A stretch of DNA of 64,000 bases. Source: Clostridiales bacterium (GTDB lineage: Bacteria > Bacillota > Clostridia > Saccharofermentanales > DTU023). Position numbers and translations under genes: made by a program. Shown piece after piece: positions 9,174 through 59,878 of the stretch. The stretch covers positions 72,712 to 136,711 of the forward strand of contig SFGY01000005.1 in the NCBI GenBank assembly GCA_004556455.1, written 5' to 3'. Positions within the stretch are counted from its first letter, which is position 1. Every line of letters starts with the position of its first letter. The notes below the pieces were generated by a model, which did no database searches, was not told the origin of the DNA, and saw only the letters and a program-made list of their open reading frames with translations.

Positions 9174-9211
9174 TTATCGGCGCTGGAATGCTATGAATGG
9201 TTTAGCCAGAA
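9174..9211 (-). other. displaced original 3' end of the VanZ-like gene (attL side)
   Basis: The minus strand reads ...LAKPFI-AFQRR-TAA. The first 6 codons are identical in DNA to the current 3' end of the VanZ-like ORF at 16652-16670. Confidence 0.7.
9193..9211. repeat. attL core (19-bp direct repeat ATGAATGGTTTAGCCAGAA)
   Basis: Exact 19/19 copy of 16652-16670. Confidence 0.8.
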
Positions 9212-9310: not shown

Positions 9311-9330
9311 TTTGTTACCTTTTTGTTACC
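9311..9330. repeat. tandem arm-type repeat TTTGTTACC x2 (11-bp spacing), left end of island
   Basis: tttgttacctttttgttac, with 19/19 identity to 16589-16607; overlaps the integrase stop codon. Confidence 0.7.
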
Positions 9331-10378
9331 CCAGCCCGTTCAATTTGTTCATGACCTCTTGCTCTTCAGTTGGGTAAAAATGTGAGTATGTATCAAGCGT
9401 CATTGACACCTTCGCGTGACCTAACCGCTTGCTAATCAATACAATGTTAACGCCCTCTTGAATCAACAGGGAAGCATGCGAATGTCTGAGGCCGTGAACA
9501 TGAATGCGCTTTACCCCGGAGGCCCGACAGCCTTCAGCTATTCCCTTTTCAATGAAGCGTTTTTCCCATAAGAACACGGGCGCTTGCGGGGAGGTGTCGA
9601 AACAGTGGGCTTTATATTCCTGTAGAAGCTCGATCATGTGCCGGGGAAGCATAATGCGGCGCCTTTCGCCTGTTTTGGTAGGTGTGACAACGGCCCGACC
9701 CTTTAGGCGCTGGTATGACCGGTCAATCGTCACAGTGCCTTCTTTGAAGTCGAGCTTTTCCCACGTGAGCGCCAATAGCTCGCCTTTGCGCATACCTGAC
9801 CAGTACAGCAGCGCTATAGCCGTTTTTGCCTTGATGTCTGAAACCTCAGCAATAACCTTTGTGTACTCTTTCAGCGTCCAAAAACGCATATGTTTTTTCT
9901 CTTCATTTGCTGAGCGTGGAGGCCCGGCGAGTGAGCACGGATTGGCTTTCAGACCGTAGAGTTTAACCGCGTGATTGAAAATAGATGATAGCGTTTCCTG
10001 GAGCGCTTTCATGTATGTATTGCTGAGCCCTTGCTGAATTAAACCATTCTGCCAAGCTACAACCCTTTTAGCGTCGATATCTTTCAAGTTCATGTCGCCA
10101 AAGAAAGGGATTAAATGTTTTTTAATTCTGAAGTCTTTGGTCTGAATGGTATGTTACCGAAGTTGCGGGTCTACGTCTTTTTTGTAGAGCTTAACAAAAT
10201 CGCTAAATGTCATATCCGGCTGAAAAGCCGCGTTCGCTAGCTGGTCATGCTCGTAGGCCTCAGCCTCCCGCTTCAGGAGAAAGCCTGACTTCTTAATCTG
10301 CTTTGACTTTCCTGAAGCGTCCTTCATGCGGTAAATGCAGAACCATTTTCCCGTTTTTTCATTCTTGTAGACGGTCAT
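9326..10378 (-). pseudogene. int: tyrosine recombinase/integrase interrupted by a single in-frame TAA (10154-10156)
   Basis: Track ORFs 10154..10417 (arm-binding N-terminus MTVYKNEKTGKWFCIYR...) and 9326..10093 (catalytic domain with HGLRHSHASLL and LGHAKVSMTLDTYSH) are in the same frame. Reading through the stop gives ...DPQLR*HTIQTKDFRIKKHLIPFFGDMNLKDI..., a normal integrase core-binding region. Confidence 0.8.
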
Positions 10379-10940
10379 GGATGGTTTCATCCTCGGCTTG
10401 AGCCTTAGCCTTATCAATGTCTATTCCTTCTTTGAAACGGTGTGGGTTCGCCTGCACTAGCGCATATAGTTTAAATTTGAAATACTCTGCTATGAACTTT
10501 GATATTTCTTCCATTTCCTTAAAAGTAATGAGGTATGCTCCATTAACTGGAATATACCCATCTTCAAAATAGACAGCGCAATCTATATTTTTCTCTCCAG
10601 TGTCATTTAATGAATACATGGGGGCGTAGTGCAAACGTTCGTCCATATAGACTAAATTCTCAAAAAACTCATTGTTTATGTCGTATTTGTAAAATTCTTT
10701 AATATCGTCCCCTGTTTTTAAATCTTCTGTCAACGAATCAAGCGGGACATCCAAAGCCTGGGAAATTTTTGTCAATGTCTCAATACTCGGGGCACGATAT
10801 CCGCGCTCGTAGTTAGACAGAGCAGAAGGCTGAATTCCTATCTTCTCGGCCAAACATTTTTGGGATATGCCCTTTTTTTCTCTAGCATATACGATGCTAA
10901 AACCAAGACTGTCATAAAAGTTATTTATTTTATTGGCCAT
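10359..10940 (-). CDS. XRE-family HTH repressor with unknown C-terminal domain (cI/Stl-like position)
   Basis: MANKINN... start with GGAG RBS; HTH KKGISQKCLAEKIGIQPSALSNYERG; same strand as int and divergent from the cro-like gene. Confidence 0.7.
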   Translation of the reverse strand: MANKINNFYDSLGFSIVYAREKKGISQKCLAEKIGIQPSALSNYERGYRAPSIETLTKISQALDVPLDSLTEDLKTGDDIKEFYKYDINNEFFENLVYMDERLHYAPMYSLNDTGEKNIDCAVYFEDGYIPVNGAYLITFKEMEEISKFIAEYFKFKLYALVQANPHRFKEGIDIDKAKAQAEDETIHDRLQE

Positions 10941-10962
10941 GTCGTCATCTCCTTCTACAAAC

Positions 10963-11052
10963 AAAATACACAATGCGTGATGTATTTTCAAGTAAAAGCT
11001 TGACACATCACGAATCATGAATTACTATCAGAGAAAATACACGAAACGTGAT
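10963..11052. promoter_or_regulatory. divergent promoter/operator switch region
   Basis: Plus strand: TTGACA (11000-11005), 17-nt spacer, TACTAT (11023-11028). Minus strand: TTGAAA (10986-10991), 17-nt spacer, TATTTT (10963-10968). The 8-bp inverted repeat CGTGATGT (10976-10983) / ACATCACG (11005-11012) places one copy in each spacer. A third half-site CGTGAT lies at 11047-11052. Confidence 0.6.
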
Positions 11053-11076
11053 CGAGAAGGAGGCGAAAATCACAGA

Positions 11077-11274
11077 ATGAAACTTAACACTCTTGAAATT
11101 GACTTAGCTAGAGCCAAATTAGGCGTAAGTCAGACCGAACTAGCCGAAGCTGCAGGAATTAGCAGGGTATGGTTGGGAATTTTGTTAAAGCGTGGCGAGG
11201 CTTCCGCTGACATAGTAGTTAAATTGGCCGCTGCACTAGGTGTTTCTCCTGGAGAAATAATTAACGAAGGCTAA
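11077..11274 (+). CDS. XRE-family HTH protein (Cro-like position)
   Basis: 65-aa product MKLNTLEIDLARAKLGVSQTELAEAAGIS... The start is uncertain; the track ORF starts at 11017 without an RBS. Confidence 0.6.
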   Translation: MKLNTLEIDLARAKLGVSQTELAEAAGISRVWLGILLKRGEASADIVVKLAAALGVSPGEIINEG

Positions 11275-11314
11275 CCATGGCCGAATTACTAGGTATGAAG
11301 GAGGAACCCTAACC

Positions 11315-11532: not shown

Positions 11533-11730
11533 ATGGCTGAATTACTAGGTGTGAATGAAGTTGTAAATATCGTAGGAACCGGCCCTGATGCAGCCTATAA
11601 GATCATACGCGAGTTAAACTCAGAACTCAAAGAACGGGGCTTTCTCGTTGTTCGCGGGCGTATTGCTGAAAACTACCTTCGGGAGCGGCTGAACCTTGAA
11701 AGGGGCAAAGAATGCCTGACCGACAAATAA
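11533..11730 (+). CDS. small HTH DNA-binding protein, excisionase-like
   Basis: 65 aa, MAELLGVNEVVNIVGTGPDAAYKIIRELN...; size and position (between switch and replication gene) fit Xis/HTH_17-type proteins. Confidence 0.5.
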   Translation: MAELLGVNEVVNIVGTGPDAAYKIIRELNSELKERGFLVVRGRIAENYLRERLNLERGKECLTDK

Positions 11731-13832
11731 CAATCAGCACAGCTAAAAGCGTTGAGACTAAGAAATGGAATGTCTCGACTATTACGGCTTCGCAATTTAT
11801 TAAAGAGCTTAACTGGTTTCGGGAAATTCACTACACCCCGGAAGACTTCGCGAAGCTAACAGCCGAACAGCGCAGGGATTTAAAGAACGGCTCTTGCTAC
11901 GTTTTCGGAGCCCTGGATGATACAGGAAAGCGGCAGAAAGGCCATATTCTAACCCGCGAGGGGCTGACCTATGACTTAGACAATATTAACCGCGAAACGC
12001 TTAATGAGGTGCTTTTCTGTCTCAGTGAGAGCGGTTATAACTACGCTGTTCATAGCACCGCAAGCTATGACGGAAAGAACGCAAAAGTTCGCGTGATTAT
12101 TCCTTTCTCACGAGCGATCAGCCCGGAGGAATACAAGGCGAAAGCGAAAGCAGCAGCGCCCTTGTTTGCTATTCCTGTTGATGATGATGTGAGTTCTTTT
12201 GAGGATACGCGCGCTCTATATCGCCCAACTAACCTGAAAGGCGTAGAACCTCTGTATTACGCCCGGACAGATGGCGAGTTCTTAGACCCTGACACGCTGG
12301 AAGCGCCGGAAATGCCCCTAGAACGCGTCACACCTGCTGAGCCTCAAGTTATGCCAAAGAACGAGGAGCGGGCGCAGATTGACGACCTGACGGCCATGGA
12401 GGCGGTACGCAAACAGGTTCACTATGACTGGAAGAACTTGCAGGACAGAGAAAACTATTTAGCGGCGCTTATGGTGATAGTCTCTGCCGTTCAGCACGGA
12501 GAGATCACGAGAGAAGCGGGCGAGGCTTGCGCGGTGCTACTGGCGGGAGATCGTAAGGACTGGAAAGAACCGAATCGTAAACAATTCTTTAAAGAACTTG
12601 AGAACACAACGACAAGAACACAATACACGTTTTGGCAGAAGTTCGGAGGGGGAAGGCAAAGCCCGGATGGGGATTCATCAGAGGCTAACAAAACCGACTT
12701 GGTCTGCCTGGCCGATATAGAGCCGAAAGACGTTTTTTGGCTATGGAAAGGATACATTCCCCGCGGCATGCTATTCGGAATCCAGGGCGACCCTGGCAGT
12801 GGCAAAACATACAGCACACTTTCGATATGCGCAGGAATAACCCGCGGGGAGCTGCCTCCTGACTTGTTTGGCCCTGTAAAGATACCCCCTGAAAACATTC
12901 TCTACGTAAACGGCGAAGATTCACTAGAACATACCATAGTGCCCCGACTTATCAAATTGAGGGCAGATATGACCCGCTGCTTTACCTTAGACGAAAGAGA
13001 AAAGGCGCTAGACTTTTCACAGTTAGATCGAATAAAACGAGCTGTAGAAAAAGCGCGCCCCGCCCTTGTCATTTTTGACCCCATTCAAGCGTTTCTTGGC
13101 GCGTCTGTTGATATGCACAAGGCAAACGAGGTCAGACCGGTTATGGCTGCCCTCTCTCGCCTTGCTGATGAATTCAGCTTCGCTTGCGGGCTTGTTGGTC
13201 ATATGAATAAATACGGGGGCGGTAAGGCCATTTATAGAGGGCTTGGCTCGATTGATCAGCTGGCAAATTATCGTACTGCCTTTTTAATCGGTAATGACCG
13301 CAGAGCTTCAGATCAGAAACTTATGATTCAGATTAAAAACAATCTCGATCGTCCAGCGCCCCCTCAGATATTCCGCATTGAAAACGACAAAACTATTTCA
13401 TGGCTTGGCCCCGACCCTGAAGCCAAAGAGGCCGACATATTGCAAGAAGCAGCCGAAAAAGAAGGCACGGCACTTAATAAGGCAATTACCTGGCTAAGAG
13501 GCTTATTAGAAGAAAAACCCGTTTGGTCTAACGAACTTGACGAGGAGGCCGGAAAAAACGAGATCAGCAGAAAAACATATGAAAGAGCGCGTGCTACCTT
13601 GCGCGGAAGTTGGGAAATTGACACATACAGAGCGCCAGTGATTAATCGCTGGTACTGGGCTAAAAGAGGGAAAAAAGTCCATTTCGGAACTGAAGATGAA
13701 GGAAAATGCTCAATCGAATATGAAGATGATGAAGCCGTCAAAGTTGGCGAACTTGGCGAACATTGGCGAACTTGGCGAACTTTGGCGAACTTTGGCGAAG
13801 TTGGCGAAGTTGGCGAACTTGGCGAACATTGA
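11712..13832 (+). CDS. fused AEP-type primase-polymerase / AAA_25 (RepA/DnaB-like) helicase replication protein
   Basis: N-terminal LTYDLD (DxD) and AVHST motifs typical of archaeo-eukaryotic primases. Central Walker A GDPGSGKT, Walker B LVIFDP and GHMNK. The last ~30 aa are encoded by the iteron array. Confidence 0.75.
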   Translation: MPDRQITISTAKSVETKKWNVSTITASQFIKELNWFREIHYTPEDFAKLTAEQRRDLKNGSCYVFGALDDTGKRQKGHILTREGLTYDLDNINRETLNEVLFCLSESGYNYAVHSTASYDGKNAKVRVIIPFSRAISPEEYKAKAKAAAPLFAIPVDDDVSSFEDTRALYRPTNLKGVEPLYYARTDGEFLDPDTLEAPEMPLERVTPAEPQVMPKNEERAQIDDLTAMEAVRKQVHYDWKNLQDRENYLAALMVIVSAVQHGEITREAGEACAVLLAGDRKDWKEPNRKQFFKELENTTTRTQYTFWQKFGGGRQSPDGDSSEANKTDLVCLADIEPKDVFWLWKGYIPRGMLFGIQGDPGSGKTYSTLSICAGITRGELPPDLFGPVKIPPENILYVNGEDSLEHTIVPRLIKLRADMTRCFTLDEREKALDFSQLDRIKRAVEKARPALVIFDPIQAFLGASVDMHKANEVRPVMAALSRLADEFSFACGLVGHMNKYGGGKAIYRGLGSIDQLANYRTAFLIGNDRRASDQKLMIQIKNNLDRPAPPQIFRIENDKTISWLGPDPEAKEADILQEAAEKEGTALNKAITWLRGLLEEKPVWSNELDEEAGKNEISRKTYERARATLRGSWEIDTYRAPVINRWYWAKRGKKVHFGTEDEGKCSIEYEDDEAVKVGELGEHWRTWRTLANFGEVGEVGELGEH

Positions 13833-13891
13833 CGAACTTGGCGAACTTTGGCGAACTTTGGCGAAGTTGGCGAAGTTGGCGAACTTGACGA
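13744..13891 (+). repeat. iteron array (putative island replication origin)
   Basis: 16 direct copies of TTGGCGAA (14 exact, 2 TTGACGA) spaced 9-10 bp apart, with a 66-bp higher-order period. Confidence 0.8.
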
Positions 13892-14052: not shown

Positions 14053-14277
14053 GTTCCCCTGAACTGGTCACGCAATAAACCGGAAGTAGATAATAGTTGC
14101 TCAAGCGCGCCCGGTGCTGATTGCAAAGGAGGTTTCACGAAAGCATTTAAGAGTATCAAAACCAAAAACGCGAAGCAGAAATAACCGTCCCTACCCTGAG
14201 AAAGCACACAGGACAAACAAGAAACACAAAACACAAAGGCACACAACATCAAAGAACATGAAGGAGGATTGAAAAAC

Positions 14278-14583
14278 GTGAAACATCAAAGCACAAAAAA
14301 AGGGGCTTGCCCTCTTACCACAGACCAGCAGCCCCACGACTTAAAAGCCGTTAATGACAGTATGAACCATGAAGGCGGGGAATTTCAACTGATACTAAGC
14401 TACAAAGATGGGATAGCTTATGCCTCAGACGGTTATGACACAACTGAGCTATTGCCCGGAACCTTTCAAATGATTGTTGACGCTGTAGCAATAGCTGGCA
14501 AGCTGAAACAGGAAGGCAACTTCAACAGCATAGAAGAATACCTGACCGAAATAAGGAAAAGGCGGGAGAAAGCAGAAGAATAA
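14278..14583 (+). CDS. hypothetical protein (101 aa)
   Basis: GTG start about 10 nt after AAGGAGGA; followed by a terminator-like hairpin; no recognisable motif. Confidence 0.5.
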   Translation: MKHQSTKKGACPLTTDQQPHDLKAVNDSMNHEGGEFQLILSYKDGIAYASDGYDTTELLPGTFQMIVDAVAIAGKLKQEGNFNSIEEYLTEIRKRREKAEE

Positions 14584-14659
14584 ACACTTGACCGCCCTGA
14601 AAGCTATTGCCAGGGCCCGCCAGGTGTAAAGAGGTACAACAGAACAAAAGCCGGAGCAA

Positions 14660-14687
14660 GGGGTCTGCATATCGCAGCCCCCTTTTT
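14660..14687 (+). terminator. Rho-independent terminator
   Basis: Stem ggggtctgc/gcagcccc (one bulge), 5-nt loop, then cTTTTT. Confidence 0.7.
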
Positions 14688-15318
14688 AATGGCAGAAGGC
14701 TATCACAAGAAACCCCGCAAAAATTTCCTCACGCGCGCGCGAGATATTGCCGCTGTCGCTAACCCCTATCCGACAGCCACCCCCTAAAGATTTTTGCATT
14801 TTTTTACCCCCCTGCCCTTAGCCGTATCACTTAAAGCCAGGTTAAAGCCGTGTATTCTGTGTGTTTCTCTTTCCTCACGAAAACCCCGCGCTCCTCACGG
14901 CCAACGGGAAAACATGAACCACGTTTCCCGCATGATTGTTTCATCGCTCAGATGATTAGCAAGAGGGCAAAACTAGAGAATGGCAACGGCTAATAGCCAG
15001 TAAACAAGGAGCTAGTAATCACACTCAAGGCCGCTTGAAGCTAGCGATTTCTACCCCCTCTTACCCTCAGAAAGAAAAGATTTTCGCATAAGAAACCGCT
15101 AATAATAGTTGGAAATATTTCACTTTTAGCAGCTTTTTGCTGAGAGAAGAACACGATTAAAGCACGATCAGGAACAACAAACAAGAGCGGGCACCCTTTC
15201 ATGTGTTTTTATGTGCAGTGACGGCGAAAGGCGCGCCCATGCTGGTAGGGAGGAGGTAGCCCACGCCTTTAGTAAAGGCAAAGCAAGGGCTGAAGCTGTC
15301 AAAATTTCTTTGACAAGT

Positions 15319-15345
15319 GCCGGTTACTGAAAACGGCTTTTTTTA
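15319..15345 (+). terminator. terminator-like hairpin inside the ORF-free tract
   Basis: Stem gccggtt/aacggc (one bulge), 6-nt loop, T8 run. Confidence 0.6.
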
Positions 15346-15538
15346 TGGCGAAGGTCGACCGCGGCCAGTCCCGACAAAATATATAATTTCCTCTCGCTCC
15401 TATAGAAACCCTCAGCACGCAAGCGATGAAAAGCTAAGCGCCCCGCTTTATATTGCTATTAGCCGCTTGTGGTGTTAGAATCTTTTTAAGAACATAAGAT
15501 ATCTTGAAGTATATGTATAATATTCAAATAAATATCTA

Positions 15539-15575
15539 ACTTCGACAAACTGGTATTTTGCGAAGTTCGTTTTTT
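15539..15575 (+). terminator. terminator-like hairpin inside the ORF-free tract
   Basis: 7-bp stem aacttcg/cgaagtt, 15-nt loop, followed by cgTTTTTT. Confidence 0.4.
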
Positions 15576-15759
15576 GCATAATATACAGGGCTTGAAATGC
15601 CCTATTATCAGGGCTTACAAAACTGCAAAAACTAAGACAAACTACAAACAAAAAACACGAAGTCTATAAAAAGCGTTAGAACGCATTTGAGAATGAATAA
15701 TATACATCGGGATATTTTATCAATCGTTAAAAGTGTTTCTATTGTGGAGGTACGGTGCT

Positions 15760-15996
15760 ATGATCAGTTATAAACCTTTAGCCCACACACTCATTGACAA
15801 GGGGATAAACAGGGCAGAGCTTGGGCGGCGGTGTGGCTTTTCCCCTTCTACGCTCGCGAGACTTGGCAAGGACAGAAGCGTAAACCTAACTGTTATTGAG
15901 CGGCTATGCTTAGAGCTTGGCTGCCAGGTGCAAGACGTTGTAGAAATACTTCCCGACCCGGAAGGGATAACAGAGCCGCCAGGTGCTGAGCTTTGA
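15760..15996 (+). CDS. XRE-family HTH protein (78 aa)
   Basis: MISYKPLAHTLIDKGINRAELGRRCGFSPSTLARLGKD...; GGAGG RBS before the ATG at 15760. Confidence 0.7.
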   Translation: MISYKPLAHTLIDKGINRAELGRRCGFSPSTLARLGKDRSVNLTVIERLCLELGCQVQDVVEILPDPEGITEPPGAEL

Positions 15997-16641: not shown

Positions 16642-17142
16642 TCAAAGTCTAATGAATGGTTTAGCCAGAATCAGACCCAGGATGAGCCCCAGGGTGTTGA
16701 GCAGAATATCGTCGATATCCCAGACGCCGATGCCCGTCAGTAATTGTAAAAATTCGATCAGGAGGATACAAAAAAGACCGGAAAAGAAGAGCCTGAAATG
16801 ACCTTTATTTCTCAGGAGCAGACGACCCAGAAAACCATAGGGAAGAAAAATAAGGAGATTGCCGAGGAGATTCAAAAGCGCCAGGTGGAAATGTGGGCCA
16901 CCCGGTTCCAAGAGCTGCGAGAAGAGACGAATGCTGTGTAAAGGTTTCAGGTTAAAGGCTTCGCCCACCTGAGGGTCCAGAAGGGTCAGATAAGGTGACA
17001 GTTGCTGAGGCTGCATAAAGGGGAGCGTTTTAAAAAGTAAAAGTGAGAAAACGCAGCAAAGGTAGAGCAAAAAGCACAGCCAACCCACGATGCTCAGCCA
17101 GGTCAAAGAAGAATGTAAACGTTTATGGCTCATAAGCTGCAT
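16642..17142 (-). CDS. VanZ-like family membrane protein (3' end supplied by the island)
   Basis: Multi-TM 166-aa ORF with LGNLLIFLPYGFLG and WDIDDILLNTLG motifs typical of VanZ-like proteins. Confidence 0.8.
   Translation of the reverse strand: MQLMSHKRLHSSLTWLSIVGWLCFLLYLCCVFSLLLFKTLPFMQPQQLSPYLTLLDPQVGEAFNLKPLHSIRLFSQLLEPGGPHFHLALLNLLGNLLIFLPYGFLGRLLLRNKGHFRLFFSGLFCILLIEFLQLLTGIGVWDIDDILLNTLGLILGLILAKPFIRL
16652..16670. repeat. attR core (19-bp direct repeat)
   Basis: Exact copy of 9193-9211; encodes the LAKPFI codons of the VanZ-like ORF. Confidence 0.8.
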
Positions 17143-17237: not shown

Positions 17238-18416
17238 ATGGATCCAGTGACAGATTTTATCAGCCGCATTCTCACGGCAATTGTGTATGGAGTTGTTGAA
17301 GGGGTCAGTGAATGGCTCCCCATTAGTTCGACCGGGCATCTCATTTTGCTTGAGGCGATCTTGCCTCTGCGCATGTCAGCGGCCTTTGGTTCGGCTTTCC
17401 GTATTGTGATTCAGCTGGGAGCCGTCATGGCTGTGCCGCTGCTCTACTGGTCGGTCATCTGGCCTTTCGGCAAGCCCCGACAGCCCCAGATTCATGCCCT
17501 GGGAAATCGCCCGCCTGTCCGTCCGCAACAGAGGCCTCAAGCTGGTCTTAACGACGCAGGTCTGAATTATGGCCAGCCGCATTCTCGAAAGCCGGAGAGA
17601 GCGCAAAGCCCTGTCAGAGCTTCTGTCCCGCAGAGAGCAGTTCGCCCTGCTGCACCGCAGAACCTGCGCCCCGACCTGCAGCAGGAGAAGAGAAGAACTG
17701 AGAGGCCAGCTTACCGATATCAGCCGCTGAATGGTCCTAAGCCAGATGCAAACGCTTTTCCACCGCGGCAGATGAGCGCTTCCTCTCGGCAGACGCAGAC
17801 CGTGAAAGGCCAGCGAAGTTTTTCGTTTCTGCGCCCGGACGTCCTCATGCTCTGGGCTAAACTGCTGCTCGCCTGCGTTCCGGCAGCCATAGTAGGTCTT
17901 TTTTTTGACGATCTCATCGAAAAACATTTTTATAACCCCCTGCCTGTCACGCTTGCCTTAATCATCGTTGGCCTTCTCTTTATCATTGTGGAGCAGTCGC
18001 TGAAAGGCAAACATCCCCGTATCCTGACACTAAACGAAATGAGCTGGTCACTGGCTCTGATCATCGGCCTGTTTCAAGTGCTGGCAGCAGTCTTCCCCGG
18101 GGTGTCTCGTTCCGGCGCCACCATACTGGGAGCTTTGATTTTCGGTGTGAGCCGTAAAGTGGCCTCTGAATTTACTTTCCTGCTTGCTCTTCCGGTCATG
18201 CTCGGAGCGAGCCTCTTAAAATTACTTCGGCTCAATTATCAGCCCCAGGCCATTGAGACCGTGATTTTGCTTGTGGCCTGCCTCAGTGCTTTTATTGTTT
18301 CCATTCTGACGATGCGTTTTCTCATCAGCTACGTGCAAAAGCATGATTTCAAAGCCTTTGCTTACTATCGCATTGCTCTGGGGGTTCTGGTGCTTGTTCT
18401 CTTCACCTTCATGTGA
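17238..18416 (+). CDS. uppP: undecaprenyl-diphosphate phosphatase with ~120-aa low-complexity insertion
   Basis: EWLPISSTGHL and PGVSRSGATI signature motifs of BacA/UppP; 392 aa. Confidence 0.88.
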   Translation: MDPVTDFISRILTAIVYGVVEGVSEWLPISSTGHLILLEAILPLRMSAAFGSAFRIVIQLGAVMAVPLLYWSVIWPFGKPRQPQIHALGNRPPVRPQQRPQAGLNDAGLNYGQPHSRKPERAQSPVRASVPQRAVRPAAPQNLRPDLQQEKRRTERPAYRYQPLNGPKPDANAFPPRQMSASSRQTQTVKGQRSFSFLRPDVLMLWAKLLLACVPAAIVGLFFDDLIEKHFYNPLPVTLALIIVGLLFIIVEQSLKGKHPRILTLNEMSWSLALIIGLFQVLAAVFPGVSRSGATILGALIFGVSRKVASEFTFLLALPVMLGASLLKLLRLNYQPQAIETVILLVACLSAFIVSILTMRFLISYVQKHDFKAFAYYRIALGVLVLVLFTFM

Positions 18417-30862: not shown

Positions 30863-30953
30863 GGAGAGTTGGCCGAGCGGCTGAAGGCGCACGATTGGAA
30901 ATCGTGTTAACGTTAATAGCGTTACGTGGGTTCAAATCCCATGCTCTCCGCCA
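30863..30953 (+). tRNA. tRNA-Ser (anticodon GGA)
   Basis: GGAGAGTTGGCCGAGCGG... 5' end, anticodon stem-loop cacga-TTGGAAA-tcgtg, long variable arm, GGTTCAAATCC T-loop, encoded CCA. Confidence 0.9.
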
Positions 30954-32384: not shown

Positions 32385-32480
32385 AAGACAGAGTAGGAAG
32401 ACTTGCGTCAAGTGCAGTGGGATGGGAAGTTGCCCGCTGACGAAAGAGACGGTGGACCCTGTGAAACCGTAAACTCTGCG
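32385..32480 (+). promoter_or_regulatory. THF (tetrahydrofolate) riboswitch aptamer
   Basis: ACAGAGUAG-N8-GCGUCAAGUG-CAGUGGG-AUGGGAAGUUG-CCCGCUG-ACGAA... matches the conserved 5' half of the folT-motif/THF-I aptamer as I recall it. It sits upstream of a folate-family ECF S component. Confidence 0.7.
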
Positions 32481-32557
32481 GTGAGTCTCCCGCGTCCGCT
32501 GCCGCTTAAGCTGCTTATCACTCCTTTTGTGGCAACTGTCATGAAAGGAGCTTTTTT

Positions 32558-52905: not shown

Positions 52906-54204
52906 ATGAAAAAAATACTTTATTACGTTAATCAGTTTTTCGGACAGGTGGGTGGAGAAGAGAAAGCAGATATCGCCCCAACTTTCGTGAAGGAAAGCAT
53001 CGGGCCTGCACTTGGTTTTGCTCAGGCTGTCAAAGGCCAGGCTGAAGTCTGCGGAACCATGATCTGCGGTGATAACTTCTTCAATGAGCATCAGGAGGAA
53101 GCCCTGGAGTTTCTGAAGAAAATTGTGACTGAAGAAAAACCGGATCTGGTGGTTGCGGGCCCTGCTTTTAATGCCGGGCGTTATGGGATGGCCTGTGCCG
53201 GTGTTGTGGATTTCTGCCTGAAACATGAAATTCCTGTGCTGACGGGAATGTATAAAGAAAACCCCGGGGTAGATCAGATTGCCGGCAAGGCGCTCATCGT
53301 TGAGACGGCTAATTCTGCCGCAGGTATGCGCAAAGCTTTGCCTGTCCTGAGTAAGCTTGCCCTCAAAATGCTTTCAGGAGAAGAGATCGGAAAGCCTCAG
53401 GATGAAGGCTATCTTCCCCGCGGTAAGCGGGAAACCGTGATCGTACCCGAACGCGGCTCTCTGCGGGCTGTGGAGATGCTGATCAAACGTCTGAATGGGG
53501 AAGCTTTTGAGACGGAATTACCGATGCCTGTATTTGACAATGTTTCACCGGCAGAAGCCATCAAGGATCTGTCAAAGGCATGCATTGCCCTTGTGACCTC
53601 TGGAGGTATCGTTCCGCTGGGGAATCCCAGGCATTTACAAAGTGCTTCAGCCCAGATGTGGACAAAAGAGGATGTCAGCTCACTGAAACAGTTAACAGGT
53701 TCGTATATGACCGTTCATGGCGGCTACGACCCGGTCTATGCCAATGCTATGCCTGATCGAGTGGCTCCACTCGATATTCTGCGTGAATTTGAAGAAGAAG
53801 GCTATATTGGCCATGTTTACCCTTACTTTTATGCCACAACAGGAACCGGAACATCCGTAGCCAATGCCCGACGCTTTGGTCAGGAAATTGGCGCAGAACT
53901 TAAGGAGGCAGGAGTAGACGGTGTGCTGCTCACTTCAACCTGAGGAACTTGCACGCGTTGCGGTGCAACGATGGTTAAAGAAATTGAACGTTATGGTATA
54001 CCGATTGTCCACATGGCGACGATTACGACGATCTCTAAATCTGTAGGAGCTAACCGCATTGTCCCAACTACGGCGATCCCGTATCCGGTTGGCGATGCAA
54101 GTCTTGAGGCCGGGGCGGAACACTCATTGCGCAAAAATATGGTGAAAAGAGCGCTTGATGGTCTCGCTACAGCAATCAGTGAAGCAACAGAATTTGAAAA
54201 ATAA
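52906..54204 (+). CDS. grdB: selenoprotein B of a glycine/sarcosine/betaine-type reductase (GrdB/GrdF/GrdH family), UGA-Sec at 53941-53943
   Basis: Track ORFs 52906..53943 and 53971..54204 are in the same frame. Reading TGA as U gives ...GVLLTST-U-GTCTRCGATMVKEIER..., the conserved U-x-x-C-x-x-C redox motif of GrdB-family proteins. Confidence 0.85.
53949..53968 (+). promoter_or_regulatory. SECIS-like hairpin
   Basis: ttgcac-gcgttgcg-gtgcaa (6-bp stem, 8-nt loop) starting 5 nt after the UGA. Confidence 0.6.
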
Positions 54205-59801: not shown

Positions 59802-59878
59802 TGCCTGCTTAGCTCAGTTGGTAGAGCAGCTGATTTGTAATCAGCAGGTCGGGGGTTCAAGTCCGTCAGCAGGCTCCA
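59802..59878 (+). tRNA. tRNA-Thr (anticodon UGU)
   Basis: GCCTGCTTAGCTCAGTTGGTAGAGCA 5' half, anticodon loop TTTGTAA, GGTTCAAGTCC T-arm, encoded CCA. Confidence 0.9.

Follow-up and report, generated by a model that had tools for sequence, protein, structure and literature searches.

A conserved non-coding mosaic in a small satellite-like island of an uncultured gut Clostridiales bacterium, and a possible cos-type packaging region within it

This analysis concerns the tract at positions 14584-15759 of a 64-kb stretch of DNA from a Clostridiales bacterium (the whole of which is termed here the window), a tract that is free of sizeable open reading frames (ORFs) and that lies within a small integrated island with the gene content of a phage satellite. 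Judged by comparison with sister islands, the tract is a real, conserved non-coding mosaic region and not one large structured RNA; and its core (14705-15078), which consists of two parts termed here module A and block X, is by the same comparison under purifying selection. This core may be a cis-acting, cos-type (that is, cohesive-end-type) DNA packaging region of a satellite that has no terminase of its own, an interpretation to which somewhat less than an even chance is given here. On this interpretation the core would be recognised by a terminase, with block X presumably forming part of the same function.

Constraint on a non-coding core

Sister islands, designated here by L numbers, were gathered via exact-protein look-ups and primase homologs. 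Besides near-identical copies of the island (L001-L004), they include the members of the 'window clade' (five lineages: the window itself, L005, L007, L024 and L029/30, which occupy three chromosomal sites and whose tracts are 89-93% identical); a second clade with a different primase (L012-L015); and the islands L020, located at a tRNA gene, and L019, whose primases are 48% and 45% identical, respectively. A gene-free stretch of 1.04-1.25 kb ahead of the gene for a helix-turn-helix (HTH) protein of the HTH_26 family is kept in the window clade, in L012-L015 and in L020; in all, the tract is retained in seven distinct lineages at at least four chromosomal sites (islands L008-L011 have many small ORFs and no such tract). 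An earlier note on this DNA, made from the letters alone, had proposed conservation among homologous islands as a check, and the tract is indeed kept throughout the window clade, L012-L015 and L020. Each of its sequences is present as a single copy per island and is absent from the rest of the window (by nhmmer and within-window comparison), and a repeat, a miniature inverted-repeat transposable element or a second copy was rejected on account of this single occurrence. Using blastn, no match was found among INPHARED phages or PLSDB plasmids, and scans of GTDB genomes, JGI metagenomes and IMG/VR with words from modules A, B, C and X recovered the same island contigs and no others.

The tract is non-coding by several lines of evidence. 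The earlier note had reported neither an ORF of 60 residues or more nor a shorter one with a usable ribosome-binding site (RBS), and both observations stand: the longest ORF on either strand has 58 amino acids (aa), those of more than 40 aa are scattered, and the plus-strand starts that resemble Shine-Dalgarno (SD) sites open at most 18 aa. The sole longer ORF with an RBS-like start (47 aa, minus strand) lies in a fast-evolving spacer and is not conserved; a 37-codon minus-strand ORF (14799 to 14686) with a G-rich SD was rejected, its ATG being present in the window only and replaced by ATA in every other lineage. Recoding of TAG or TGA was rejected as well, all three stop codons being present in all six frames. 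A hidden protein gene was likewise rejected: tblastx matches between lineages are alike in all six frames, and the conservation is therefore non-coding.

This conservation is concentrated in the core. At four-fold sites of three flanking genes the window differs from sister lineages by 3-26% (mean ~12%), and the core is 5-10 times more conserved than such sites. When three lineages are compared, positions 14800-14999 contain a single variable column in 200 nt, as against ~4 variable columns per 50 nt in flanking coding DNA and 14-27 in the spacer; when five are compared, ~17 of 360 columns vary at 14718-15078 (eight of them clustered in module A) and ~9 in 330 nt in the block X region, with 30-50% of columns variable in the spacer that adjoins the core. 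A recent sweep was rejected as the cause of this invariance: the core substitutions follow the tree of the flanks, separating the window and L005 from the rest in agreement with a 76-nt indel, and the invariance therefore reflects selection.

In composition, too, the region is unusual. The richness in C-tracts that the earlier note had pointed out is the most extreme of all 391-nt intervals in the window (six runs of at least four C and no G-run within 391 nt); 116 C versus 76 G were counted, and the GC skew is -0.16. The repeated words listed in that note are found where it had placed them (TTCCTCACG at 14725 and 14871; AAACCCCGC at 14710 and 14881), as is a 7-bp hairpin at 14905-14930. One-mismatch copies of TTCCTCACG occur further at 14891 and 15388, all copies being on the plus strand. 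Window-wide counts of these words are only mildly above those in shuffled sequence; it is their local clustering that stands out.

A cos-type packaging region and its rivals

A link to phage packaging is provided by the start of module A. A degenerate pattern, AAAATTTNNNCACGCGCGCGAG, built from this start as it occurs in L013 and L020, was searched in IMG/VR and matched only two contigs (L031 and L032), both of which carry the same phage sequence. The match lies within a 118-nt spacer that separates terS, a small-terminase gene (Terminase_4, phrog_5110), from an HNH endonuclease gene (phrog_119), the matched element being ~20 nt upstream of the terS start and RBS; downstream in the phage are genes for TerL, portal, ClpP-type protease, HK97-type capsid and tape-measure proteins. 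The order HNH, cos, terS, terL is well established for HK97-like cos phages, and the HNH-terS spacer is the classical position of cos; on the strength of gene order, this spacer is taken here as the putative cos region of the phage. Of its sequence, 21 nt match the reverse complement of window positions 14718-14738 exactly, and ~45 nt are loosely similar; the phage element agrees with L013 at 39 of 48 positions and with L020 at 21 of 22. Agreement with the window extends to the pattern's three unspecified positions and to the bases flanking it.

A sister island points the same way. L019 (11444-12095) carries its own P27-family terS (phrog_5110), which is 42% identical to the phage terS (tblastx E 8e-23) and which is preceded by a 334-nt C-run-rich spacer. 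This spacer holds ATACCCCCGGTAAAA, a 14/15 match to the box after the HNH stop codon in the phage, and, nearer terS, an AAATTTT...CTACGCGCGAGG box. C-runs directly follow the HNH stop codon both in L031 and in Clostridium phage phiCD6356 (a complete phage with a terS of the same family, in whose linear record HNH is the last gene and terS the first). Because of the extra identical bases, the location within the 118-nt spacer and the terS of L019, the match is considered meaningful. Among the possibilities raised by the earlier note, a cos/pac site is the only one with positive evidence, albeit from a match that is short and partial. In HK97 itself, the element read by TerS is a G plus an A-tract at a distance of 15 bp from the cut, and cleavage is stimulated by the HNH protein (PMC11331095).

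If the core is a cos-type region, then the tract as a whole might be understood as follows. Its left part would be a truncated-gene stump together with the terminator of the replication operon; the C-run-rich, near-invariant core of ~375 bp (module A plus block X) would be the packaging region; next would come a neutral spacer and then a conserved block whose weak terminator would insulate what follows; and the right part would be the operator/promoter region, with three 13-bp palindromes, of an operon comprising the HTH_26 gene and a gene for a 175-aa protein. After induction, replication from an iteron origin upstream of the tract would generate concatemers of the 7.5-kb island, which would be recognised and cut at the core by the HNH, TerS (P27 family) and TerL proteins of an HK97-like helper. 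Packaging would probably be as multimers, and five units (37.3 kb) would fill a head of ~37 kb. The cos-type pathogenicity islands of Staphylococcus aureus, such as SaPIbov5, operate in this manner. Such a region would account for the lack of coding capacity and for strong constraint without an RNA-structure signal, as well as for the G/C runs beside A/T tracts, for the motif shared with the phage spacer and for the existence of a sister island with terS. Multimer packaging would perhaps also account for the tandem island pair in L012/L014 (contig NODE_166, ERZ1673752), where two complete copies with tracts 99.9% identical stand in direct tandem at the same chromosomal site.

Several observations weigh against this interpretation. 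A mimic of cos should match its helper over 100-200 bp, and here the phage match is short: the whole 118-nt spacer is only ~50% identical, block X has no phage match at all, no full-length match of the core was found in INPHARED or IMG/VR, and a pattern of 19 specified bases is estimated here to match IMG/VR about once by chance. The matched element resembles an intrinsic terminator in the terS direction and could be only that; the C-run boxes are opposite in orientation, relative to the hairpin, to those of the phage; and the differing order and orientation of modules among lineages are odd for a single extended site. Moreover, no helper phage is known, the position of cos in L031 is inferred from gene order and not from mapped ends, and this copy of the island, whose integrase carries a nonsense codon, may no longer move.

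A different kind of explanation is that the core encodes an RNA. A large structured RNA, which the earlier note had proposed, was rejected. Rfam 15 has no match in the tract at the gathering score (nor do the models named earlier as a check, such as ROOL, GOLLD, raiA and HEARO), and at E up to 10 gives just five chance-level matches, to L17DE and to eukaryotic small nucleolar RNA, microRNA and long non-coding RNA models. Folding energies equal those of shuffled sequences, with z-scores of -0.24 / -1.57 for the core, 0.59 / -0.96 for block B and ~0 for the 663 nt between the terminators T1 and T2, both strands. Covariation across homologous islands, likewise proposed as a check, was not found: RNAalifold predicts for module A (six lineages) one small hairpin with an unfavourable covariation term on either strand, and on either strand predicted pairs are disrupted by core substitutions as often as they are preserved, these tests having low power because the core hardly varies.

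A gene for a ~380-650-nt non-coding RNA of little stable structure, acting by base pairing or factor titration during helper infection in the manner of the P4 CI RNA or of the abundant PLE intergenic transcript, is considered somewhat unlikely, and two versions of it can be conceived: a plus-strand RNA, C-rich, G-poor and with anti-SD-like boxes, extending from just after T1 to T2; or a G-run-rich minus-strand RNA, starting in the spacer near 15095-15110 and ending at the phage-like hairpin and T-run (14744-14718). In accord with such a gene, the near-invariance is contiguous over ~350 nt rather than patchy; T1 and T2 bracket the core on the plus strand, with wobble-compatible changes, and a hairpin plus T-run with G.U pairs that fit the minus strand only ends it on the other. 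Strand-asymmetric C-runs persist even in X', the L020 counterpart of block X that is not homologous to it, and in the spacer ahead of the L019 terS; by eye, a minus-strand promoter-like site (TTG(T/A)AA, 18-19 nt, TTTTAT) is present just right of the core in four of five lineages; and satellites are known to make abundant non-coding RNAs from ORF-free spacers (PMC7567579). What speaks against it, apart from the missing Rfam family, the z-scores and the absence both of covariation and of structure-preserving substitutions, is that a promoter scan found no sigma-70-type promoter for the core on either strand (and that the window itself lacks a minus-strand -35 hexamer) and that the core has no extended complementarity to other parts of the window. 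The discrete plus-strand transcripts bounded by terminators that the earlier note envisaged are possible, with no convincing promoter to start them. The more specific proposal, that the core is the gene of a new satellite RNA (in either of these two versions, the minus-strand one ending at a terminator taken over from phage) that belongs to no family, is made on helper infection and interferes with helper expression or packaging, is deemed fairly unlikely; were it true, the island's only anti-phage or hijacking function would be RNA-based.

The core might instead be a relic of a lost packaging module: an ancestral island would have had terS behind a phage-derived control/terminator region, as L019 still has, and after the loss of terS the flanking DNA would now serve as terminators or insulators, or have no function. 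The boxes plus terS of L019 fit this account, as do the visible truncation of the neighbouring gene in the window clade, the broken integrase of this copy and the way in which modules are shuffled from lineage to lineage, several junctions bearing the word AATTTCCTC(A/T)CGC. Decaying or spacing DNA, however, is expected to evolve like the adjacent spacer, and the core is far more conserved; moreover, the core is kept in lineages with an intact integrase, and no terS or HNH remnant was detected in the tract. A relic is judged improbable. Still less credence, amounting to a very slight chance, is given to the idea that the whole tract is a long regulatory leader of the HTH_26 / 175-aa operon, of a Rho-dependent or attenuation type in which the C-rich RNA would serve as Rho loading site. 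The C-rich, G-poor composition, the terminator-like hairpins ahead of the gene, and the operators and promoters within the last 300 nt would suit a leader; but a Rho loading site needs no near-invariance over 350 nt, module A comes after T2 rather than before it in L013/L015, and, relative to module A, L020 carries the HTH_26 gene inverted along with its control region and T2, so that module A is not part of an HTH_26 leader. A cos-type packaging region is thus preferred here, tentatively, as the interpretation of the core.

Parts of the tract and the island that carries it

The features of the tract and the neighbouring genes of the island are listed in Table 1.

Table 1. Features of the ORF-free tract and of the island around it, in window coordinates (a dot indicates that no strand applies)
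Feature	Position	Strand	Description
HTH_3 regulator	10359-11018	-	One of a divergent pair, cI/Cro-like
HTH_3 regulator	11017-11274	+	Other member of the divergent pair, cI/Cro-like
Excisionase-like ORF	11533-11730		Resembles ICEBs1 Xis
Primase-helicase gene	11712-13832		706 aa; AAA_25 domain
104-aa ORF	14269-14583		Upstream neighbour of the tract
Gene stump	14584-14649	+	Out of frame; in tblastn with the L015 232-aa protein, 124 residues aligned across the stop codon to 14649
Terminator T1	14660-14687	+	Closes the primase/104-aa operon; strong intrinsic terminator
Module A	14705-14838	.	AAATTT box, (CG)n hairpin, 5-7-bp hairpin with C-rich loop, C-runs, T-tracts
Phage-like element	14718-14744	-	CTCGCGCGCGCGTGAGG-AAATTTTT; hairpin plus T-run as read on the minus strand
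Block X	14839-15078	.	Near-invariant; repeats TTCCTCACG / AAACCCCGC / CTCCTCACG, small hairpins
Fast-evolving spacer	15079-15185	.	27 and 14 variable columns per 50 nt; loosely alignable between lineages
Block B	15186-15318	.	Conserved start, then indel site near 15272
Terminator T2	15319-15345	+	Weak; 4-bp GC stem plus T7
Conserved box	15346-15395	+	GTCGACCGCGGCCAGTCCCGAC, after T2; perfect TATAAT at 15378-15383, word AATTTCCTCTCGC
Block C	15396-15759		A+T-rich control region of the HTH_26 gene
Sigma-70-like promoter	15453-15481	+	Best of the tract by scan (TTGCTA, 17 nt, TG-n-TAGAAT); conserved in all lineages
Putative operator O1	15514-15526	.	13-bp palindrome TGTATAATATTCA
Hairpin plus T-run	15539-15575	+	Between O1 and O2; -8.6 kcal/mol, z -1.65
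Putative operator O2	15575-15587	.	TGCATAATATACA
Putative operator O3	15694-15706	.	TGAATAATATACA; inside promoter-like site 15687-15716, just upstream of HTH_26 RBS and ATG
HTH_26 gene	ATG at 15760		78-aa product; directly downstream of the tract
175-aa protein gene			In operon with the HTH_26 gene

At the left end of the tract, the 104-aa ORF represents the N-terminal half of what is a 196/232-aa protein in sister islands (L013 7061-7651; L015 6924-7622), and the stump continues it out of frame, with ~21% of its columns varying among lineages. No trace of the lost C-terminal half was found right of 14649. (By eye only, that half looks like an S24/LexA-type beta domain; it has no Pfam match.) The 'wreck of lost genes' suggested by the earlier note is therefore real as far as 14649, where tblastn finds pseudogene remains; beyond this point neither tblastn nor the tblastx that it had called for finds anything, and the rest of the tract has no protein remnant and is mostly too conserved for decay. 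Pseudogenes of terS, of HNH or of the lost C-terminal domain were rejected, there being no match beyond 14649.

Three hairpins had been described earlier as terminator-like, none of which is flagged by a simple terminator scan. T1 is clearly an intrinsic terminator (-15.9 kcal/mol, none of 200 shuffles being as good, with a T5 tail), as had been claimed; an A-to-G change in L029 yields a U.G pair on the plus strand only, and L020 has a different hairpin at this position. T2 is weak in energy but conserved: its tail is present and it is kept in all lineages, but its short stem (-6.2 kcal/mol) is no better than shuffles. One stem pair of T2 runs G-C, G.U and A-U across lineages, and pairing is 90% in register versus 23-60% with the register slid (five sequences, for which the shuffle control is not significant). 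The hairpin between O1 and O2 does have a T-run and is intermediate in energy, and is a doubtful terminator; its stem has an uncompensated mismatch in L013/L015, and L020 keeps the sequence, not the pairing.

Module A occurs once per island in all lineages including L020 (nhmmer E 1e-24 to 1e-36; L020 2e-24). Its phage-like element was flagged by the scan as terminator-like on the minus strand, and as read by eye its wobble pairs fit that strand only. Block X is confined to the window clade: other island clades, phages, plasmids and IMG/VR yielded no homolog of it. (Its counterpart in L020 contains, at 11245-11282, 2.5 tandem copies of a 15-nt unit, ATGAAAGACACATGT, and also a strong CCCCTCCCC/GGGAGGGAGG hairpin.) For the fast-evolving spacer a diversity-generating mechanism was rejected, given that there is no reverse transcriptase and that, with a 1-nt shift allowed for, the divergence is ordinary. 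Block B is found in all lineages of the window clade and of L013/L015 (nhmmer E ~1e-24), most lineages having a ~76-nt insertion near 15272; in L013/L015 it comes immediately after the 196/232-aa gene with its terminator. The box that follows T2 accompanies it in every lineage, including the inverted copy of L020; that this TATAAT box, which has no -35 hexamer, might be a promoter is conjecture.

The order and orientation of these modules are permuted or inverted among island lineages. In L013/L015 module A lies after block B rather than before it; L020 has the HTH_26 gene inverted en bloc with its control region and T2 (so that T2 is downstream of the HTH gene), with T1 and module A as in the window. 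This, together with the word that recurs at several module junctions, suggests rearrangement via short repeats, that is, by illegitimate or short-homology recombination.

The right end of the tract is A+T-rich, as had been noted earlier (GC 0.35 over the last ~370 nt), and ~16% of the columns of block C are variable. The 'several palindromes' reported there are explained by one 13-bp palindrome that occurs three times and that is interpreted, most simply, as a set of operators of a dimeric HTH repressor. The pattern TGNATAATATNCA has three occurrences in the window, all of them at 15514-15706, versus 0.62 expected (one mismatch allowed). The number and spacing of the palindromes are identical in all islands, and in L020 one copy lies upstream of the inverted HTH gene. 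The best reading of this arrangement is that the HTH_26 protein, or another repressor of the island, would act via the three palindromes on the HTH_26 / 175-aa operon.

The island itself is 7,459 bp in length; an exact 19-bp direct repeat, ATGAATGGTTTAGCCAGAA (9193-9211 and 16652-16670), marks its ends, and the right att copy lies within the 3' end of a VanZ-like gene. The arm-type repeats of the island are at 9311 and 16589. The tract takes up 15.8% of it, in line with the ~15% given earlier. By its sequence, the gene content is that of a satellite resembling phage-inducible chromosomal islands: att repeats, integrase, regulators, excisionase, primase and iterons, with no structural genes. 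In domain searches no terminase, capsid, portal, tail or lysis domain was found among the island's ORFs, which thus lack a match to Terminase_4 as to other terminases. The tyrosine integrase, encoded at one end of the island, has Arm-binding and catalytic domains by domain search and is split into two ORFs (9326-10093 and 10154-10417) by an in-frame TAA (window 10154-10156, minus strand; ..DPQLR*HTIQ..) that replaces a Glu of sister islands; like L001/L003, this copy probably cannot excise by itself. (Closely related islands whose integrases are ~95% identical occupy different chromosomal sites: the 3' end of VanZ, a position next to a sortase gene and another next to a sigma-70 gene (L007 5074-12818; L024 5827-6281); and L020, at its tRNA gene, carries the same arm-type repeat, TTTGTTACCTTTTTGTTACC, at 13100-13250.) The 175-aa and 104-aa proteins have no match in Pfam, PHROGs, NCBIfam or PADLOC; for the former the AlphaFold model is too poor for use (pLDDT 51), and a likeness to sigma region 4 was seen by eye only and not confirmed.

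The likely replication origin of the island, judging from its repeats, is an iteron array of ~16 copies of a 9-bp unit, TTGGCGAAC, at 13744-13891, which overlaps the primase-helicase gene at its 3' end; a distinct 9-bp array stands at the equivalent position in every related island. The copy number of the iterons differs among strains, and the length of the primase-helicase therefore varies (684-706 aa). An origin inside the tract was rejected: the iterons lie upstream of the tract in every lineage, adjoining the replicase gene as in satellite origins, and the tract has no tandem array.

Beyond the island, the adjacent gene for BacA (undecaprenyl-diphosphatase; 17238-18416) encodes 392 aa, including a long insert rich in proline, glutamine and arginine that follows the first ~70 residues; the L012 version has 340 aa. 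Elsewhere in the window, gathering-score matches to Rfam are a THF riboswitch, SECIS_4 and two tRNA genes (32387-32503; 53944-53981; 30863-30950; 59803-59875).

Significance and comparison with known systems

Strong sequence constraint in the absence of an RNA-structure signal points first to a DNA site. If the core is indeed a cos-type region, then this island family would be among the smallest satellites described, with a replication module and a packaging signal and no packaging or capsid gene, in a setting (uncultured gut Clostridiales) where satellites have hardly been studied; and its motif could be used to find helper phages with HNH and P27-type TerS and to trace phage-mediated gene flow in the gut. 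If the core encodes an RNA, then this would be a new satellite-borne regulatory RNA. Either way, the analysis illustrates that comparison among sister elements makes it possible to take apart long ORF-free stretches in small mobile elements. What keeps the finding moderately interesting are two unexplained features: the clade-specific, invariant block X and the conserved, strand-asymmetric C-runs.

Among known systems, the structured RNAs ROOL, GOLLD, raiA and HEARO resemble the core in size (400-650 nt), in their location on mobile elements and in having no ORFs; the core differs in having no covariance-model match at E up to 10 and no excess of folding energy or covariation. Satellite non-coding RNAs, such as the CI RNA of P4 and the PLE transcript, likewise come from ORF-free satellite stretches with repeated short words, and in PLE the most abundant transcript originates from an ORF-free spacer between inverted repeats (PMC7567579); the island's core, however, lacks complementarity to the leaders of island genes, a structure signal and flanking inverted repeats. 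With HK97-like cos regions the core shares a motif located between HNH and P27-family terS, and G/C runs beside A/T tracts (PMC11331095), but it is ~3 times longer than the L031 spacer, to which it is mostly unrelated.

Phage satellites offer the nearest parallels to the island as a whole. The PICMIs of Vibrionaceae, which are phage-inducible chromosomal minimalist islands, encode a small-terminase-type function of their own and are parasites of virulent phages that infect Gram-negative hosts. The present island, by contrast, has no recognisable packaging protein; it is like PICMIs in being a very small satellite with a reduced gene content and no capsid-remodelling genes, and PICMIs are packaged as concatemers (PMC10803314). 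The cos-type Staphylococcus aureus pathogenicity islands (SaPIs) differ in other ways: the cos of SaPIbov5 is essentially identical to those of known helpers, whereas the island is like one metagenomic phage over only 21-48 nt; SaPIbov5 is ~14 kb in length with a capsid-size determinant (Ccm), whereas the island, at 7.5 kb, has nothing of the kind; and the host of the island is an uncultured gut Clostridiales bacterium. In overall organisation, nevertheless, SaPIbov4 and SaPIbov5 are much like the island: all are integrated elements with an integrase, a repressor, a primase-replicase and an origin beside the replicase, and with no terminase of their own. SaPIbov5, moreover, carries a highly conserved non-coding phage cos site at the place of a former packaging operon, and is packaged by the HNH, TerS and TerL proteins of its helper (PMC5052747).

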